Made by a program: the position numbers and the translations under genes. This document shows positions 4,175 through 29,959 of a stretch of DNA of 32,000 nt, one piece after another. Every line of letters begins with the position of its first letter. Position 1 is the first letter of the stretch. Source of the stretch: Candidatus Saccharimonadota bacterium (GTDB lineage: Bacteria; Patescibacteriota; Gracilibacteria; BD1-5; UBA6164); contig OZ245768.1 in NCBI GenBank assembly GCA_965227835.1, positions 1,260,001 through 1,292,000 of the forward strand, read 5' to 3'. The notes under the pieces were generated by a model, which searched no databases, had not been told where the DNA came from, and saw nothing but the letters and a program-made list of their open reading frames with translations.

Positions 4175-4202
4175 TTGACTGTAAGTTTATTTTTTATAGA
4201 AT
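4175..4202 (+). promoter_or_regulatory. candidate sigma-70 promoter for the tRNA (TTGACT-16 nt-TAGAAT)
   Basis: TTGACT at 4175-4180 and TAGAAT at 4197-4202, about 65 nt upstream of the tRNA 5' end. Such hexamers arise easily in an AT-rich background. Confidence 0.25.
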
Positions 4203-4267: not shown

Positions 4268-4346
4268 GCGGGGGTAACATAACAGAGTGAGTGTACTAAG
4301 GCTTCAACCCTTGGGTGTGCGAGTTCAAACCTCGTCCCCCGCTCCA
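4268..4346 (+). tRNA. tRNA-Gly(UCA), the TGA-decoding tRNA of genetic code 25 (CCA encoded)
   Basis: Cloverleaf folded by hand. Acceptor GCGGGGG/CCCCCGC, discriminator T then CCA. T arm GCGAG-TTCAAAC-CTCGT. Anticodon arm TAAGG-CTTCAAC-CCTTG with anticodon TCA at 4304-4306, U33 and A37. 5-nt variable loop. G1:C72, C2:G71, G3:C70 and U73 are the bacterial GlyRS identity set. Confidence 0.85.
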
Positions 4347-4358
4347 AATAATAAACTA

Positions 4359-4398
4359 AATAATTTCTTAATTCTTAAAGACTGAGAAATTATTTTTT
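4359..4398 (+). terminator. intrinsic terminator after the tRNA
   Basis: 10-bp stem AATAATTTCT/AGAAATTATT followed by a T-run at 4393-4398. Confidence 0.5.
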
Positions 4399-6253: not shown

Positions 6254-7486
6254 ATGAGTCTTTTAAAAAATCTTAGTAAACATTTAAAGGCTTTTTTGGT
6301 TACAAAATTTTTTGCATACAGCCAAGAGGCATTTTTTAAATTTTTAATAAATATCTACTTTTGGAGAATAACCAATGATATATCATTTCTTATCCTGTAT
6401 AATATTATATTTGAGTTTGCTCATACCTTGACTTACTTTCCTTCCTGAAAAATTAGTAAAGAGTATAATAGGTTTTTTCCTTTACGTATAGGTCTAGTTT
6501 TACAGTTTGTTTTTCTTGGTTTGATCCTTTTTCTTAAAGAAGATATTATTCAATACATAATTCCAGTCGCATTAATTGGAGGTATTGCACATGGAGCTTA
6601 TTGGAGTTCAGATAATCTATTAAAATTTGACCTTACAAATCCTAAAAATAGATTAAAGTTTACAGCAATACACCATATATTAAAGCAAATAGCTTATTCA
6701 TTGGTTCCTTTAATAGCAAGCTTATTGGTTATTAATAACTGAAATATTGTTTCTTCTTATGCAGAAATTTTTACTGCTTCAATGATTTTTACCTTCTTGG
6801 CATTAATTTCAACCTTCTTTATTTCAAAACAAAATAGCTTTGTTAAAAATAAATATTCCCCAATAAAAACATGAACTGCCTTGCTAAAAGATAAAAATAT
6901 TAGGACTGCTTTTATATCCACATTTTTGAGTTATATTGCGGACATATTACCCCTATTATTAGGACTTGTTTTATTTTTTTCTAGTGGAACTGAGCTTTCA
7001 ATTGGTAGTTATCAATTTATTACAGTTTTAATGGCTGTTATAGTTAACTACTTAGTAGGAAAATATTACTCGCAAAAAGATTATAAAAAGTTATTAATAT
7101 ATTGAGGGCTAATAAATTTTGCACTAATCTTTATTCTACTAATTAAGCAGGATTTCATTTCCATTTTGATTTATGGAATTTTAAGTAGCATTTTTTCGGT
7201 TGCCAATAATCCTTTTTACCCCTTGATTCAAGATTCATTGAGTATGTATGCCAAGAATAAAAAACATTTACTGGACATCAGAGTTGAGTTCATGACTTTG
7301 ATAGAAATTTCTGTTATGCTTGGTAAAATTTCAGGTCTATTATTTTTATTAATAATTCATTTTAATTTAGGTTTTAATACTATAGCTATAACAGCAATTA
7401 TCTTTGCCTTTGCTAAATTACTATCAAATTTCTATGTAACAAAAATCAAAGGAGATAAATTTATTACAATAGATTCCATAAATTAA
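6254..7486 (+). CDS. MFS-type multi-TM transporter
   Basis: Four track ORFs (6254, 6521, 6881, 7166) are in one frame, separated only by TGA. 410 aa and about 12 hydrophobic segments. The family call is generic. Confidence 0.65.
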
Positions 7487-7494
7487 TTAATCCA

Positions 7495-8100
7495 ACACTA
7501 AACCACCAGCTCTGCTGGTGCGAGTAGTGCAGGTTTTACCGTTCCGGTAGTTGTGTATAATCTTCTAGGAAGCACCTAGGAGGGGAATAACTTTTTAAAA
7601 ATATGTCCCACAAATACGCAAAGCAGTCCCATGTGAATTGGGACTGCACTTACCACATAGTGGTGGTACCAAAGTACCGAAAAAAAATACTTTTTCAATC
7701 AGTTAGAAAAGATATACGAGACACATTTCATGAACTTGCAAAGAGATATGATTTTGAGATATTAAAATGAAATATAACGATAGATCATGTTCATCTCGTT
7801 TTGAGGATATCTCCAAAATACTCTGTTGCAGAAATTCTGTGAAGATTGAAATGAAAGAGTGCAATAATACTTCATAACAAACATAGTAAGAAGAAATGAC
7901 TGTACTCGAAGAATTTCTGGAGTAGATGATACTATGTAAGTACAGTTTGACTTGACTTGGATATGATAAAAAATTATGTTCAACATCAGCAACATAAGGA
8001 TAAAACCATTGATGGAAATCAGTTAGATTTAAACTGGTAAAAACTATTTTAGCCCCTTCTAGGGGCTTCCATTTAAAGCTACCAGTTCTACTGGTAGATA
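7495..8100 (+). mobile_element. IS200/IS605-family element A (TnpA only; ends approximate)
   Basis: The tnpA gene is flanked by related subterminal hairpins: CACCAG-CTCTG-CTGGTG (7504-7520) and TACCG-TTC-CGGTA (7537-7549) on the left, AGCCCC-TTCT-AGGGGCT (8051-8067) and CTACCAG-TTCT-ACTGGTAG (8079-8097) on the right. There are no terminal inverted repeats, as expected for this family. Confidence 0.7.
7603..8040 (+). CDS. tnpA: IS200/IS605 family Y1 (HUH) transposase TnpA
   Basis: 145 aa. HVNWDCTYHIVVVPKYRKK..ITIDHVHLVLRISPKYSVAEILGRLKGKSA..FWSRGYYVSTVGLD shows the HUH motif and the catalytic Tyr region. 6 TGA=Gly codons. Confidence 0.9.
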
Positions 8101-8124: not shown

Positions 8125-8823
8125 TTTATTTCAACACATCGGGATAAAAACCCCTATCTTTAGATAGTTAAGACACGGAAGGTGTAAGTGATAGAAATTG
8201 AATAAATGAGATGTGTTGTGACATAGGGTTTTAAACCCCGTTGCCTTCAGGCCGATTCTAAAGAAAAAAGTGTAAAAAATCAATAGAATAAATAAAATAG
8301 TGTTAAAAACTAACACTAGAGAGAATGAAATACCAAAAAAGTAGTCATGCGACATATGATGTCAGATACCATATAGTATGGATAACAAAATACAGAAATC
8401 CATTCATGACAAAAGAGATACAAGATAGATTGGAAAAGATCATAAGATGAATAAGTAAAAAGCTATGAGTAATAATAATAAAGATATGAATGGAAGAAGA
8501 TCATGTACATATGTATTGTAGGATACCGTTAACTAAACCAATATCTACAATAGTATGACATATAAAGTGAGAAAGTTCTAAGGCAATAAAGAGGTATTTT
8601 TACAAAGAAATTAAGAGATGGTATTGGAAGACATGAAATATATGGTGAGTATGATATTTTGTATCTAGTGTATGAGAGATAAATTGAGAAATAATATCTA
8701 ATTATGTGGAACAACAGTGAGAAGAAGAGAATAAGATTGAAGAGATAGAGCTTTAAATTTCAGTACAAATAAAAGCCCCGTGCCTTCAGGCCGGGGTAGA
8801 AGAAAAGCTAAAACTTTTTTACT
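8125..8823 (+). mobile_element. IS200-like element B, copy 1 (apparently intact)
   Basis: 699 bp repeated at 12066-12763 with only 3 differences by eye. Related imperfect hairpins around GCC-TTCA-GGC lie near both ends (about 8237-8254 and 8776-8797). Stem-loop AGTGTTA-AAAAC-TAACACT (8299-8317) sits just before the tnpA start. Confidence 0.85.
8325..8756 (+). CDS. tnpA: IS200 family Y1 (HUH) transposase TnpA
   Basis: 143 aa. SSHATYDVRYHIVWITKYRNPF..MEEDHVHMYCRIPLTKPISTIVGHIKGESSKAI..NIWGVGYFVSSVGEINGEIISNYVEQQ. 12 TGA=Gly codons. TAA stop at 8754-8756. Confidence 0.9.
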
Positions 8824-8956: not shown

Positions 8957-9853
8957 CTAAACAATAAAATAAATACCGGATAAGATTATAATTATTGAAA
9001 ATCATTTCCTAAAAAGCTCTTTTTTAGATAAGTCTTCTTTTATATATTTAGGGAAAATCAAAGATAAAATAATTCCTAAAATGAAGATAAAAACATACTG
9101 TATGTTTGTAATTGAATGTGACAAAGAAACAATAGATATTGTAAAAACGAAATTTAAGAGTATGGCTGCACATACATCTAAAAAATCATTTAACACAAAT
9201 AAAGACAATGTCTTTTTTGAGAATTTTTTGTAACATCTTATAATTTCTTCTCTTTCTTTTTTCAATAAAAGAAGAATTAGAAAAGCAAGAAAACTACCTA
9301 AAGTTATATAAGTTTGAATTGATAAAAAATCATAAAAAATTGATAAATATTTAATTGAGGCATAATGTGATGCTAGCAAAAAAGTACAAATTAGCATGTA
9401 AAATAATACTTTTCTTATCTTAAATATTGATAAAAGGTTTTTACTTGTAATTAGAATTGAGCCAAATAAGACTACAAAAATTCCTACAATTTGTAAAAAT
9501 TCAATCTCTTCTTTCAGCAAAAAAATATCAAATATAAATGTAAAAATAGTAACTAAACTAAAAAGTGGGAGTACTTTTGTCGTTTCTTCTATTTCTAATG
9601 ATTTTACATAAAAGATAAAACAATATATGTATATTATCCCTGAAATTATTGAAATAAGTATGTGTTTTAGCTTTATAATCTCAAAACCATTTATTAAGAT
9701 TAAAAGTATTAGTGTTGGTAATAGAAGTAGTCTTGTATAAAATATAAATGATGTTTGTCTTTTGATGTGAGATGTTATCAAAAATTTATCTAAAAAGCTT
9801 AAAATACTCCAAATAAGAGGTGGTATTAAAGATAAAATAATCCAAAGTTCCAT
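8957..9853 (-). CDS. EamA/DMT family transporter with a 15-aa read-through tail
   Basis: Track ORF 9002-9853 (283 aa, about 10 TM, EamA-like) has no internal TGA and ends at TGA 9002-9004. Under code 25 it continues as G-FSIIIILSGIYFIV to TAG 8957-8959. Confidence 0.7.
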
Positions 9854-10561: not shown

Positions 10562-11761
10562 GTCTGTTGCGTTTTGATTTTAAAAAGAGTTTTAATTAAA
10601 AAATGTAGTAAATAGATGAAAAATTTATAAGTTTCATCTATTTTTTGTTAAATTATAATCATATTTATATAAAATTTAGGATTTTAGACACAATCCACCT
10701 AAGGAAACTAACCTAGGTTATTCGGATTTCCTCTAAAACAACCAATCTTTTGAGATTAAAAGATATAGCCTCCATAAATGCAGTAAACTGGTTTTTTACT
10801 ACAGACTTATACCTCACTCTATGATTCATTTTTGAAAATACCCTCTCATAAGGAGATCTAAGTTTAGAATAAAACTTATCTTTATCCTTGTTCTTATCTT
10901 TCATATTATTTTTCTTTATTGCACATAGATGTAATCACTTCTTTTTTGTTGATATTACAGCCGGTCAAATACAATATCACTTATCAGCATATACTGCTCA
11001 TGAACTTGGTAATACATGCTTCATTCACTTTGCATCTGTTACATTAGCTTGAGTTATAGCTATCTTGTTTATCATTCAAGATTGCATATCAACACTAGCA
11101 TGTTTTTTATAACCATACCAAAATTTATTTTTTCACTTAGATCAAATTTTAGCTTCCTTATCATTAGCAACTTTTGGAAGAGTTTCATTATTCATTTTTT
11201 CATATCATTCTTTTATTCATTTATCTCTTTCTTCCCATAAATTAGCTTTAGTAACTAAATGAGAAGCATCTACAAATGTAAACACTTCACTCATATAACC
11301 CTTATTTGATAATTGATTTTTTAAATCTTCAAATATCTTTGATAGTTCTTTTGTTCATATCTTTTTTCTTGCTCTTGAGAATATACTATGATCTGGAGTT
11401 TTATCTGTTAATTTAAATCAGCAAAACCATTTACCAGCTAAATTTTCTGCAAGATATTTCTCTAACTCTCTATCTGATAGATCTTCCATAAACTGGATTA
11501 GTAAACATAGAAATAATTTTTTTACTCAATATCATACATGAGTTTTTCATAGATCTATATTTTTTAGTATTTTATTTACTCAATCAAAGTTCCACAATTT
11601 CTTAAATTTACGATATTGATGATTTTCTGGAATTAGCTCGTTTAGGATAACAAAACTTATTTGATTTGATTCTCACATAGGTATTTTCTTAGAATATAAT
11701 TACTATCTAATTATATCTCTTTTTTCTCTTTTTAATAGTCAAAGTTTAATTTACAACAAGC
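10562..11761 (-). mobile_element. IS5-family insertion sequence (IS903-group-like), 1200 bp
   Basis: Imperfect terminal repeats GTCTGTTGCG (left) and GCTTGTTGTA (right, reverse complement). It is flanked by 9-bp direct repeats ACATAAAGG (10553-10561) and TCATAAAGG (11762-11770), 8/9 identical. A 12-bp-stem hairpin at 10610-10643 lies downstream of the transposase stop. Confidence 0.8.
10713..11678 (-). CDS. IS5 family DDE transposase
   Basis: 321 aa with TGA=Gly. LIQFMEDLSDRELEKYLAENLAGKWFCGFKL..PDHSIFSRARKKIG (DUF772-like N-terminus), FVDASHLV, KFWYGYKKHASVD..ITQANVTDAK, AVYADKGY, RSPYERVFSKMN..NQFTAFMEAISFNLKRL. Confidence 0.9.
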
Positions 11762-12832: not shown

Positions 12833-14116
12833 CTATTCCTTAGGTATAGATATAGCAGGATTTAGATTTATACTTGTTTTATCATTTTTGTTTGAACCAC
12901 AAAACACAACTTTTGAAATATCAGGTAGAAATAAATCAAGATCTTTTTGTTCTATACTATTTTCTTTACCTTCCTCTCTATCTTTTCTTATTGCCACATA
13001 CATTTCATAAACTTTTAATCTATTGAGAGTTTCTATTCTTAGTTTTTTAGTAGAAATATAGTTGTAAATTAAAAAAGATAAAAGAGTAAAAAAGAGCAAA
13101 GAGCTAGGAAGTAGAAAATAAATAAATTTATTAGAGGTTTCTATAAAATCTTTTATTTCTTGAAAATGGAATATGACTAAACTAACACTTAAAATTAAAT
13201 AAATTATTAATGCTAAAAGCCAGATTCTCTCTGCTCCAAAAAAACCAGAATCAAGAAAAAATTTTTTAGTTTTTCCCCAAAAATTTTCCCCTTTCTTCTC
13301 TCCATATAAAAGTTCTTTTAGTGGTTTTGAGAAGCCTTTAACACTTTCTAATTTTTCTTGGTCTTTCTTAAAAATTTCCCATAATTCTTTATATTCATTT
13401 GAAGATTTTGAGATTTCTTTTTCTGCTTCTTCATATTTTCCAAGTTTATCTAGATAAATAGCTTTATGGTAATAAGCCTTATAGTAATATGGATTTATTT
13501 TTATTGCTTTTTCATATTGTTCTACTGCTTCTTCATATTTCCAGAGTTCAGCCAAAGTATTCCCCTTATTATGGTAGGCTTCAGCATAACTTGAATTTAT
13601 TTCTATAGCTTTATCATATTCTTTTATTGCATCTCCATATCTTTTAAGGTTCTTTAACGATATACCTCTATTATTATAAGCCTCAAAATAATCTTTTTTT
13701 ATTTTTATAGCTTTATCAAGCTCTATTATAGCTTCCTCAAATTTTTTAAGTTTATTTAGGCAAAGCCCCTTATTATTATAAGGAAACACAAATTCAGAAT
13801 TTATTTTTATAGCTTTATCATACTCTTTTATTGCCTCTTCATATTTTCCAATTTCTTCAAGACAGTATCCTTTGTTATTATAAGCATAATGAGATTCAGG
13901 ATTTATTTTTATAGCTTTATCATACTCCTCTATAGCTTCCTCATATTTTCTAAGTTCAGACAAAGAAACACCTTTCCAATAATAAGCTTCAAAATAATCT
14001 TCTTTTATTTTTATAGCTTCATCATATTTTTTTATAGCTTCTTGGTGATTTCCTAAAGTACCCAAAGAATAACCCTCATCAAAATATTTCTTAGCATTAT
14101 CATTTACTTCACTCAT
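12833..14116 (-). CDS. TPR-repeat protein with C-terminal transmembrane segments
   Basis: 427-aa uninterrupted ORF. About 7 tandem 34-aa repeats (EEAIKEYDKAIKINP..AYNNKG.), then two hydrophobic helices. 19 Gly, none encoded by TGA. Confidence 0.85.
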   Translation of the reverse strand: MSEVNDNAKKYFDEGYSLGTLGNHQEAIKKYDEAIKIKEDYFEAYYWKGVSLSELRKYEEAIEEYDKAIKINPESHYAYNNKGYCLEEIGKYEEAIKEYDKAIKINSEFVFPYNNKGLCLNKLKKFEEAIIELDKAIKIKKDYFEAYNNRGISLKNLKRYGDAIKEYDKAIEINSSYAEAYHNKGNTLAELWKYEEAVEQYEKAIKINPYYYKAYYHKAIYLDKLGKYEEAEKEISKSSNEYKELWEIFKKDQEKLESVKGFSKPLKELLYGEKKGENFWGKTKKFFLDSGFFGAERIWLLALIIYLILSVSLVIFHFQEIKDFIETSNKFIYFLLPSSLLFFTLLSFLIYNYISTKKLRIETLNRLKVYEMYVAIRKDREEGKENSIEQKDLDLFLPDISKVVFCGSNKNDKTSINLNPAISIPKE

Positions 14117-14133
14117 ATTTCTATTAATTAATT

Positions 14134-15612
14134 CTAAAAAGTATTTCTCTCTATAAATTCACTTGCAATTTTTTTCATCTCTATCAATTCCTCTTCACCC
14201 TTTTTTTCAAGCATTTTCGTCATCATACTCATCCTGACATTTTTCTCAAAAACTTTTTTATTATCATCTATAAAACTCCAATAAAGTGAATCCAAAACTC
14301 TACACCAGCTGTCTTTTTTATAATTAGACATCTTTAAAATATAGTTACTCCCACAAATATAAGGCTTTGTAGCAAAAACTCATCCATCACTATATTGCCC
14401 CATCCCATAAACATTTCCATACATAACCCAATCCAAACTATCTACAAACATTTCCATAAACCACCTATAAACCTCATCAGGTTTAATTCTACACAAAAGC
14501 ATAATATTTGAAACAACCATAAGCCTGTCAATATGGTTTAAATAACCGTATTTAACTACCTTTTTAATAGTATTATCAAGAGGTAATATCCCAGTTTTAC
14601 CATTGTACCAGTTATTATTTAGTCTATTCTTATGATTAAAAAAATTCTTATTTAAAGAGAAATTGTTATAAACTCCCCTCATAAACTCCCTCCATCCAAT
14701 TACTTGTCTTATAAAACCCTCAATATTGTTTATCTCAACATTATTTTGTGTAAAATATTCAAGTATTCTTGAAACCACATATTTTGGAGATAAAAGCCCA
14801 GAGTTTAGATAAGGAGAAATAACACTATGAAACAAAAAAGTTTCTTCATCTATTGAATCTTGATATTTTCCAAAATATTGAAACCTCTCATCCAAAAACT
14901 TATCAAACCATACTTTGCAAGTCTCAAAATCAGTTGCCAAATAAAAACTATCACTCTCTCAAAAATTATCCTTGAAATATTTATCGACTATTTTTTTCAC
15001 ATCTTCTAAATTCCTGTTTTCTATATCCATTTTAATTTGAGGGATAAAAGTGTTTTTTGGAAGTTTTTTTCTATTCTCACTATCAAAACTCCATTTATTA
15101 AAAAGAGGTTTTTTGTTATCATCTACCAATACATTTAGCTTTTTTCTCATCAAAATATAAAACGAATTCATAAAAGGTTTATTTAAAGCATCTTTTAAAT
15201 ATTGTCTGAAATCATCATTTGAACATAAAAAATTTGGACTTTCAATCATTTCAAGATCAATTTTTTTTGTATTACAAAAACTCTCAATCCTATTTCTAAA
15301 AAACTTATCTTCTATAAAATAAGTTTTTATTTTTTCTATGTTTTTTTCCAAACAAACCTTTTCAAGTTTTCCCTCAAAACTCAAATTAAAATCTTCTTCA
15401 ATTTCTATATAGCTAAGATTAAAATTTTGAGAAATAAGAAAATCTCTATAATTTCTCATAGAAGCAAGAAAGAAGATTATTTTGTGTTTATGAAATTTAA
15501 AATGAGTGCAAAGACCATAATCTTCACACATAAAAAATAAATCTTTTCTTTTTGGATTTAAAAAGCTCAAATCAGAAAAAAGCTGGTTACCTAAAATTAA
15601 ATTTAGATTCAT
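14134..15612 (-). CDS. cryptochrome/photolyase-related protein (COG3046-like)
   Basis: Track ORFs 14959-15612, 14380-14940 and 14134-14331 are in one frame, joined by 2 TGA codons. 492 aa. FGKYQDSI..LFHSVISPYLNSGLLSP..IRQVIGWREFMRGVY..GYLNHIDRLMV..ATKPYICGSNYILKMS..WCRVLDSLYWSFI fits the photolyase-related family. Confidence 0.8.
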
Positions 15613-16524: not shown

Positions 16525-17517
16525 TTATACGATAGAAATTGATTCATTCTTGAAATTTGAATTTACTTTTTCCAAAATTACTGTTGCCGTTTCCGTTTCA
16601 TTATTACAATCTTCACTTTTCTTTACAATTTCCCAATACCCAGCACCACTTGTTTCACCATCAGCTATATTTTGATATATTCCTATTTTTCCCCTTGGAA
16701 TTTCTTTTAACGATGTTACATATATCATATCAACTAGTTTAGAGTCCCCAATCTTAATCCTCAAAGTATCTCCAATAAGCTTATTTCCAAATTTATTTTT
16801 AAACTTATTGTTATCTTTTACAGAAATTCTAACATTACCAAATTTGTCGGAGAAGGCAAACTCTGCGAGATTTTTTTGTTGCGGAATTACATCTGGATGT
16901 TGTCCTGATTTTTTTCTTTCTAATAATTCTTCCACACTCTCGTATTGAAAGATTGGCTCTAAGATTTCGGGGAAGTATCTTGTTGTTGCAATAATAGAAG
17001 AACGAAATTGTTCACGAGTTCAGTCGGTAACATATAGCTTTTCATTTGGAATGCGATACAAGGCAAGAATTTTATTTCGTGTTTCAAGGGCCTGCAACCT
17101 TGTTAGTGGTACAGCATAGATTTCTAACCCGTTGTTTGTAATTGCCAAATGAAAATTTTCACCGTTTTTACCACCAGCAGTTGTATGGCTATTTCTATCT
17201 GCTTTGTTCACAATAGAAATTACTGCTTTGCCCGAGAAATCTCGATTAACTACTTTTCCAGTTTTTTTCTGAATTAGTTTGATAATTCTCTGTTGTTCTG
17301 CGATCAAGTCATTGAGCAAATTTATTCCATAGTCAGCCAGTTTTGGATTTTGACCAATAGGAAATCTTAAATCTGAAAAATTTCCAAGATTGCGAGTTGT
17401 GGCTGTTAATTCTGCATCTAGATCTATAGGATTTTCTGCAAAAACATCGTTAAAATGAACTATCCCACTTGTTGAACGTTCAAGTAAGTATTGATATGGT
17501 TTTATTATTTTTGTCAT
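16525..17517 (-). CDS. hypothetical protein, 330 aa (the C-terminal part is faintly like the DUF62 SAM-hydrolase beta-barrel)
   Basis: Track ORFs 17020-17517 and 16525-16935 are in frame, joined by a single TGA at 17020-17022. It looks visibly more G+C-rich than its surroundings. SDKFGNVRISV..GDTLRIKIG..IPRGKIGIYQN recalls the D-x-FGN C-terminal domain, but this is a weak motif-level impression only. Confidence 0.65.
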
Positions 17518-28681: not shown

Positions 28682-29959
28682 ATGAATAAAAATATAGAAG
28701 ATGAAACTTCTCAAAGACCTGATGAAGATATAAATAAATCAGAAGGAATAGACACAACTAGAGAAATAAAACGTAGAATATTGGCTATTAGAGATTGAAA
28801 AAATCCAGAGAGTTGAGAAGAATCAATAGATAGATTCAGTAAATTAAAAATGTTGAAGCAAATAAAAGGTTCTTGGGATTATATATCTTATTATAAAGAT
28901 GATTTTATATTCGTCAGAAAAGGTAGAAAATGGTGATTTGTTGATAAAGAATGAGGCTTGATTTCAGATTTGTATGATGGGATAATGAGATTCTCAGAAG
29001 GTTTTGCTGTAGTTAGAAAAGAGGGAAAATGTGGACTTGTTGATAAAGAATGAAACTTAATTTCAGATTTGTATGATGAAATAACAAGATTCTCAGAAGA
29101 TTTTGCTGTAGTTGAAAAAGATGAAAAATGGTGATTTATTAATAAAAAATGAGAAGAGGTTTTAGGAGGTATAATCTATAATAATGTATGGTATTTTTCA
29201 GAAGGTCTTGCTCCGGTCGAAGAATATGGATGGTGATTCATTGATAAAAATTGAAAAAAAGTTTGAAAATGTTCTTATGATTATGTTAGTAATTTTTCAG
29301 GAGGTTTTGCTGCAGTTAAAAAAGGTAAAAAATGGGGATTTATTGACAAAGATTGAAATGAAGTTTTAGGAGGTATAATCTATAATCATGTATATAATAG
29401 TTTTTCAGGAGGTTTTGCTGCAGTTAAAAAAGGTGAAAAATGGGGATTTATTGACGAAGATTGAAATGAAGTTTTAGGAGGTTTTATCTATGATTATGTA
29501 TATAATGATTTTTCAAGAGGTTTTGCTGCAGTTGAAAAAAATGGAAAATGAGGATTCATTGATAAAGATTGAAATGAAGTTTTAGGAGGTTTCATCTATG
29601 ATCACATGGAAGGTTTTTCATGAGATTTTGCTATAGTTAAAAAAGATGGAAAATGGGGATTTGTTGACAAAGATTGAAATGAAGTCTTAGGGGACTTAAT
29701 CTATGATCGTATAGAAAATTTTTCAGGAGGTTTTGCTGCGGTTAAAAAAGGTGAAAAATGGTGATTTATTAATAAAAAATGAGAAGAGGTTTTAGGAGGT
29801 ATAATTTATGATTATGTATGAGATTTTTCATGAGGATGCAGTTTGGTTAAAAAATCTTGACAATTACCATTTTATATAAATAAAGATTGAGATATTCTTG
29901 AATATGAAGAGGGTGTAGGGATGGAACATATACACTACAAAATATTAAGTAAATACTAA
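28682..29959 (+). CDS. WG-repeat (KWG-type beta-propeller-like repeat) protein
   Basis: 425 aa. About 11 tandem units of the form Y(D/N)xVxxFSxGFAxVKKxGKWGFI(D/N)KxGxEVLGG. The G of KWG is TGA in several units (e.g. 28934-28936). Confidence 0.85.

Follow-up and report, generated by a model that had tools for sequence, protein, structure and literature searches.

UGA is read as glycine (genetic code 25) in the SR1/Absconditabacteria and Gracilibacteria, which use a dedicated tRNA-Gly(UCA) (Campbell et al. 2013, Rinke et al. 2013); that such a tRNA exists, what its identity is, and how it functions are already established. The recoding has been traced to the lineage's last common ancestor (PMC13293708), and no available BD1-5 genome contains prfB (PMC6851277). 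As summarized in later papers, the reading of UGA as glycine was validated by proteomics (Hanke 2014, via PMC6851277) and the SR1 tRNA-Gly(UCA) was glycylated in vitro by GlyRS (Campbell 2013, via PMC13293708). The acceptor pairs G1:C72, C2:G71, and G3:C70, together with U73, form the rule by which a glycine-accepting tRNA-UCA is recognized (Shulgina & Eddy 2021). A tRNA gene at 4268–4346 of the window analyzed here (the whole stretch of 32,000 nucleotides) has the same anticodon, acceptor set, and U73 and a host in which TGA encodes glycine, and it belongs to this family.

Other tRNAs that read UGA provide useful points of comparison. The tRNA-Trp(UCA) of Mycoplasma and Spiroplasma (code 4) likewise reads UGA with a UCA anticodon in AT-rich genomes from which RF2 is absent, but it carries the tryptophan identity elements G73 and A1:U72, and reading UGG as well as UGA is harmless there; in the genome of the window, UGG must stay tryptophan while UGA is glycine. 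Both tRNA-Sec and tRNA-Pyl are readers of stop codons with a 6-bp anticodon stem and a non-canonical or reduced G18G19 region in the D-loop. The tRNA-Gly(UCA) differs from them in several ways: it has neither an 8/5 or 9/4 acceptor/T arrangement nor a long variable arm, its T-loop is canonical, and two nucleotides separate its acceptor stem from its D stem. Ordinary EF-Tu presumably brings it to every UGA, without a context of the SECIS or PYLIS type. UGA reassignment is also tied to a non-standard anticodon-stem length in the tRNA-Trp(CCA) with a 4-bp anticodon stem, which reads UGA (Blastocrithidia; bacterial survey, NAR 2026, PMC13092985). In that case, the stem has four base pairs rather than six, the anticodon is near-cognate rather than cognate, and the amino acid is a different one.

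TGA as a glycine codon in the window

The window has a G+C content of 26%. The combined length of stop-free stretches (100 codons or more) increased from approximately 10 kb with translation table 11 to approximately 36 kb with TGA as a sense codon, and a coherent gene map emerged once TGA was read through; annotation with table 11 places less than one third of the window inside ORFs. In 25 ORFs, in-frame TGA accounted for 273 of 8257 codons (3.3%) and GGN for 223 (2.7%), giving a combined 496 codons (6.0%) that corresponds to a normal glycine share, while TGG contributed 56 codons (0.7%). TGA is the most-used glycine codon in these ORFs, and it ended none of the 24 complete ORFs, all of which stop at TAA or TAG.

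The assignment was examined by translating TGA as X and aligning three proteins with solved homologues from standard-code organisms. Glycine was found opposite 11 of 16 aligned TGA positions in RpoD, 11 of 12 in HisRS, and 5 of 16 in DnaN (27 of 44 overall), and tryptophan was found opposite none in any of the three proteins; true tryptophan positions, such as those of TWW in RpoD, use TGG. In a second test, ten window proteins were compared with Pfam, with TGA translated as glycine and then as tryptophan. Glycine gave the higher score in 12 of 12 domain matches (for example, 251.1 versus 149.5 bits for WG_beta_rep, 122.4 versus 85.9 for DUF212, and 119.5 versus 80.1 for AI-2E), and the KOW match disappeared when TGA was read as tryptophan. 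Because TGA aligns with glycine and the Pfam matches improve with glycine, the code is 25 and not 4: the genome of the window reads TGA as glycine. CGA and CGG, for which reassignment to tryptophan is reported in Absconditabacteria, occur five times and not at all, which is too few codons for weighing that reassignment. No release factor gene and no GlyRS gene were found in the 32-kb window.

The distribution of TGA among individual genes is uneven. Five genes are poor in TGA even though it is the commonest glycine codon (12833–14116, 14134–15612, 16525–17517, 6254–7486, and 8957–9853); the TGA/GGN counts are 0/19 in a TPR protein, 2/17 in a photolyase-related DPRP protein, 1/20 in an unknown protein, 4/15 in an MFS transporter, and 1/7 in an EamA transporter. 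These genes may have been imported recently from standard-code donors, where TGA is a stop codon. Three transposase genes, two of the IS200-like Y1 type and one DDE (DUF772/DDE_Tnp_1), lie within 4 kb of each other (7603–8040, 8325–8756, and 10713–11678) and contain 6, 11, and 17 TGA codons; being TGA-rich, they are resident code-25 mobile elements. The first tnpA holds two of the five CGA codons of the window, one of them at a conserved KYR(R)K position with an arginine-like look. The ORF at 28682–29959 encodes a 425-amino acid protein composed of nine WG-containing beta repeats, with glycines specified by both TGA (22) and GGN (41). The segment 18416–23436 holds two large ORFs (914 and 683 amino acids) with Asp/Asn/Ser-rich low-complexity regions, and the 683-residue product gave no Pfam match.

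The tRNA gene at 4268–4346 and its glycine identity

The only tRNA that ARAGORN identified in the 32-kb window occupies exactly 4268–4346 on the forward strand and has the anticodon tca, and Rfam model RF00005 matched 4268–4343 with 46.2 bits and an E of 5.7e-7, against a gathering score of 29. The minimum free energy (MFE) fold of 4268–4346 is a cloverleaf, with an unremarkable z-score of −1.25, and a structural pattern written for tRNA-Gly(UCA) gave one match in the window and 0.00 per shuffle in 100 shuffles. These results bear out a sequence-only reading of this DNA, which had proposed a cloverleaf with the anticodon UCA at 4304–4306. The gene spans 79 nt including an encoded CCA end (4344–4346), leaving a body of 76 nt (4268–4343). 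Most parts can be read directly in the sequence. The acceptor stem pairs GCGGGGG with CCCCCGC (4268–4274/4336–4342), and the D-stem pairs ACAU with GUGU (4277–4280/4291–4294, 4 bp) around a 10-nt D-loop, AACAGAGTGA in the DNA and AACAGAGUGA in the RNA (4281–4290). After A26 (4295), the canonical 5-bp part of the anticodon stem pairs UAAGG with CCUUG (4297–4301/4309–4313) and encloses the loop CUUCAAC (4302–4308), whose anticodon U34 C35 A36 is complementary to UGA. G44 (4314) and the remaining 4-nt variable loop GUGU (4315–4318) are followed by the T-arm GCGAG-UUCAAAC-CUCGU (4319–4335) and the discriminator U73 (4343).

G1:C72, C2:G71, G3:C70, and U73, which the sequence-only reading had listed as the glycine acceptor set, are all present, so the tRNA satisfies the rule for a glycine-accepting tRNA-UCA (Shulgina & Eddy 2021). 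The same reading had stated that C35 and C36 of normal glycine anticodons are lacking. This is correct for C36, a known GlyRS determinant that is replaced by A36; C35 is retained. The canonical tRNA-Gly(GCC/UCC) shares the acceptor set, U73, C35, the encoded CCA, and the canonical T-loop with the window tRNA and differs in having C36 in place of A36. On the general tRNA model, members of the tRNA-Gly(UCA) family scored 43–47 bits and nine canonical neighbours 60–74, placing the family 20–30 bits below canonical tRNA-Gly. The body shares 50–68% identity with canonical tRNA-Gly from relatives and 61–64% with tRNA-Phe. Since these values are barely distinguishable, the glycine character depends on a small number of identity positions, and overall similarity would be a weak argument for descent from tRNA-Gly.

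Two other identities were considered for a tRNA with this anticodon. ARAGORN labeled 4268–4346 "tRNA-SeC", as it did 60 of 60 family members scanned, and a selenocysteine tRNA serving UGA codons recoded at special sites would account for both the UCA anticodon and the 6-bp anticodon stem described below. A stem of that length is also present in tRNA-Sec. The label is uninformative on identity because it is driven by the anticodon alone, and every other hallmark of bacterial tRNA-Sec is missing: the acceptor and T arms have 7 and 5 bp rather than 8 and 5, the D-stem has 4 bp with a 10-nt loop rather than 6 bp with a 4-nt loop, only a 4-nt variable loop follows G44 where a long arm would be expected, and position 73 is U, not G. 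The generic tRNA model was the match retained within Rfam clan CL00001, no sel genes were found in the 32-kb window by the Pfam scan, and the 273 TGA codons (3.3%) stand at glycine positions. A selenocysteine identity therefore has a negligible probability. A tRNA-Trp(UCA) operating under code 4, as in Mycoplasma, is just as hard to credit. It would be compatible with 26% G+C, with TGA as a sense codon, and with C35 and A36, which the UCA anticodon has in common with tRNA-Trp, but TGA aligned with tryptophan at 0 of 44 positions as against 27 of 44 for glycine, the TGA share of codons is far above that expected of tryptophan when TGG alone supplies its 0.7%, and 12 of 12 Pfam matches were worse with tryptophan. 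The tRNA itself combines U73 with G1:C72 in place of the bacterial tryptophan determinants G73 and A1:U72.

The gene at 4268–4346 is thus almost certainly the dedicated tRNA-Gly(UCA) of a code-25 bacterium (Gracilibacteria/BD1-5, GTDB class JAEDAM01) from a lineage without RF2, in which UGA is used as glycine and the tRNA has an ancient body with two insertions. The proposal that it is the adaptor required by code 25 gains support from three independent sources: the assignment of TGA in the window, the acceptor set with U73, and the near-identical tRNAs of Gracilibacteria and Patescibacteria. At this locus, decoding of UGA as glycine is visible at the level of genome coding. Because TGA is the most-used glycine codon, the tRNA is expected to be essential.

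The sequences around the gene suggest an independent transcription unit. A promoter-like element upstream (4175–4202) was detected by a consensus scan with 10 of 12 matches and consists of a −35 TTGACT (4175–4180), a 16-nt spacer, and a −10 TAGAAT (4197–4202) on the forward strand. TTGACT and TAGAAT are both invariant in the two syntenic loci described below (L093 and L021), while the surrounding spacer has diverged. Downstream, an A/U-rich hairpin followed by a U-run (4358–4395, forward strand) resembles a terminator (ΔG −9.7 kcal/mol, z −4.07), and none of 200 shuffles folded as well; it was not flagged by a G+C-biased scan, and its sequence is not conserved in L093 or L021. The neighbour of the tRNA gene is frr, encoding ribosome recycling factor, which is divergently transcribed. 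In the pathway that these features suggest, the tRNA would be transcribed from its own σ70-type promoter as a monocistronic precursor and trimmed to the encoded CCA end. GlyRS would then charge it through G1:C72, C2:G71, G3:C70, U73, and C35, as described in the literature for the SR1 homologue, and the UCA anticodon would pair with UGA in the ribosomal A site to insert glycine, in a lineage reported to be without RF2.

Two insertions in the tRNA body and their conservation

The sequence-only reading had drawn attention to three oddities of the molecule, and comparison with related tRNAs altered the picture of each. A MAFFT alignment with canonical tRNA-Gly(GCC/UCC) from the same genomes contained a 1-nt gap exactly between G18 and G19 and a second 1-nt gap at the 5′ side of the anticodon stem. 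The D-loop had been described as devoid of the GG dinucleotide; the anomaly is real, but the GG is better described as split. Given the gap in the alignment and a G-A-G that is invariant in 35 of 35 distinct family sequences, the most economical reading is that A4286 was inserted between G18 (4285) and G19 (4287). At the anticodon stem, the choice had been left between two linker nucleotides and a 6-bp stem. The extra C (26a, 4296) located between A26 and the usual anticodon stem is complementary to G44 at 4314, and both the MFE fold and covariation point to a 6-bp arm (4296–4301 with 4309–4314), whose sixth pair is never unpaired in the family; the linker option falls away. Canonical tRNA-Gly(GCC/UCC) has neither the inserted A nor the extra C and has a 5-bp stem. 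Intact GG was found in 24 of 24 tRNAs of other specificities encoded in the flanks of related loci, and both insertions were absent from all 24, so that only 1 of the 25 tRNAs sampled from these genomes has them. The genomically encoded CCA, the third supposed oddity, is indeed present but is the norm of the lineage, being found in at least 99 family members and in 24 of 24 other tRNAs of relatives. Judged from these alignments, the body is that of a standard class-I tRNA with two single-base insertions (76 versus 74 nt without CCA).

The distribution of this form was surveyed in a scan of one genome per bacterial and archaeal species. The search pattern set the glycine acceptor set, U73, U8, A14, an anticodon loop of YUUCAA, a T-loop of GUUCRANNC, and a length of approximately 70 to 82 nt; invariance at any position set in this way is consequently by construction. 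At least 120 loci were recovered, and at least 99 of these are 76-nt tRNAs nearly identical to that of the window, from MAGs and genomes labeled Gracilibacteria, Patescibacteria, or "Peribacteria" with a local GC of 0.19–0.57. Adding the window tRNA gives a set of 35 distinct sequences. The window tRNA is identical at 75 of 76 positions to the commonest variant, which is common to at least 15 species representatives and present in the oral Gracilibacteria HOT-871 (CP017714) and GN02-872; the proposed comparison with published Gracilibacteria sequences thus came out as a near-perfect match. The sole difference is a D-loop base at tRNA position 16, which is C in the window and A or T elsewhere. 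Among the matches listed, the two-insertion family is confined to code-25 bacteria, and none of the at least 120 comes from a genome labeled Absconditabacteria. The closest of the loci listed, L021 and L093, are contigs of Gracilibacteria MAGs whose rpoD DNA is 79–81% identical to that of the window (best 81%), and the gene order rpoD-frr-tRNA is kept only in these two nearest relatives.

The cloverleaf with a 6-bp anticodon stem was supported across the 35 distinct sequences, in which 99.4% of its positions are paired, whereas slid controls reached at most 57%. Eight pairs show compensatory double changes, and the covariation score of 0.242 (0.119 for shuffles) was reached by none of 500 shuffles. 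The acceptor stem is 100% paired, with covariation between G-C and A-U at pair 4:69; the invariance of pairs 1–3 is by construction, as these were set by the search pattern. At the sixth pair of the anticodon stem, 33 sequences have C-G and two have U-A, and these two may reflect one evolutionary event. The wobble pairs U27·G43 and U13·G22 are invariant in all 35. By comparison of sequences across the family, the unusual body is an ancient family trait under strong purifying selection and not a peculiarity of the window copy. To the tRNA-Gly(UCA) already known, these comparisons add the two-insertion anatomy, its invariance in at least 99 species, its specificity for this tRNA, and its absence from the putative phage versions discussed below. 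The anatomy is not mentioned in the accessible code-25 literature, a scope that does not include Campbell et al. 2013.

In seven relatives of higher GC (L005, L012, L025, L030, L054, L071, and L073), tRNA-Gly(UCA) lies 12–45 nt upstream of tRNA-Gly(GCC), a tandem position that hints at an origin by tandem duplication. A tRNA-Arg(GCG) follows the pair within 0.4–1.7 kb in L005, L012, L025, and L073. The L030 group has A3:U70 in its canonical tRNA-Gly(GCC), yet tRNA-Gly(UCA) keeps G3:C70.

The searches also returned tRNA-Gly-like genes of other kinds. A 72-nt gene with a 6-nt anticodon loop, CUUCAA, occurs in the myxobacterial Nannocystis pusilla (L053, GC 0.70); identical sequences were found on contigs of 24–33% GC, some of them megabases long (L186, L195, L209, L238, and L248), and near-identical ones on low-GC BNJS/BNJT/BNJU contigs (L167, L193, L240, L142, and L196). 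This gene looks like a tRNA-Gly(UCC) that has lost one C. Genes with a canonical body, a 7-nt loop, and UCA were present outside the Patescibacteria in an Anaerolineaceae genome (L004, GC 0.65), a member of the Gemmatimonadales (L063), Streptococcus sp. (L107), and Thalassotalea (L108), and may encode UGA suppressor tRNAs with glycine identity.

Retention of the insertions

A separate metagenome scan, from which members of the two-insertion family were left out, revealed low-GC, TGA-recoded contigs carrying UCA tRNAs of canonical length in which the glycine acceptor set is combined with an uninterrupted GG and an anticodon stem of 5 bp. In L213 (Ga0228670_1000016, a 144-kb contig), the tRNA(UCA) at 1552–1622 is accompanied by a sigma-like ORF with TGA at two region-4 glycine positions, and L216 carries its canonical-length tRNA(UCA) together with a terminase-like ORF. 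L207/L197 and L149 are likewise low in GC and TGA-recoded, and their canonical-length tRNA(UCA) has GCG...CGC-U73, a normal GG, and a 5-bp stem. All of these contigs probably represent code-25 phages or prophages that carry a UGA-Gly tRNA of their own, with a different build; code-25 phages have been documented (PMC10746230). The pattern scan found no member of the 76-nt two-insertion family in viral contigs.

Two explanations for the persistence of the insertions have to be weighed against these observations. They may be neutral, frozen accidents of the founding tRNA, retained only because altering an essential tRNA present in one copy would be risky; we give this somewhat less than an even chance. 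The apparent single origin of the family and the tracing of the recoding to the lineage's last common ancestor accord with it, as do the tRNAs of the putative phages L213 and L216, whose glycine acceptor set combined with a normal GG and a 5-bp stem implies that a tRNA of this kind can be built without the insertions. Neutrality is harder to reconcile with two insertions that stay invariant in at least 99 species over a GC range of 0.19–0.57 while stems elsewhere covary freely, with a sixth pair that is maintained by compensatory change, and with U27·G43 and U13·G22 wobbles that never turn into Watson-Crick pairs. The strict conservation and the compensatory change are what one would predict if the insertions had a function, as is their restriction to tRNA-Gly(UCA) among the 25 tRNAs sampled. 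They might tune the hinge and elbow of the molecule so that U34 reads UGA and not UGG, or act as anti-determinants against TrpRS. The TrpRS determinants C35 and A36 are common to the UCA anticodon. The hazard of U34 wobble in code 25 has been noted (Shulgina & Eddy 2021), and the length of the anticodon stem affects UGA reading in other systems, where tRNA-Trp(CCA) reads UGA with a stem of 4 bp. The putative phage tRNAs, which lack both insertions, speak against a functional role, and its mechanism is drawn by analogy only; we regard such a role as possible, with the balance of probability on the other side.

In its most explicit form, the functional explanation would make the insertions a fidelity device, in which a stiffer or re-angled hinge and elbow permits the reading of UGA and suppresses U·G wobble on UGG, or in which mischarging by TrpRS is blocked. 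This form is conceivable but unlikely. If true, it would be the converse of the tRNA-Trp(CCA) that gains the reading of UGA with a 4-bp stem.

For the organism itself, the consequence is that this contig of 26% GC comes from a code-25 bacterium and requires translation table 25 for its annotation. For the family, the two-insertion body offers a testable handle on how these bacteria keep UGA (glycine) and UGG (tryptophan) separate although the decoding anticodon has U34.
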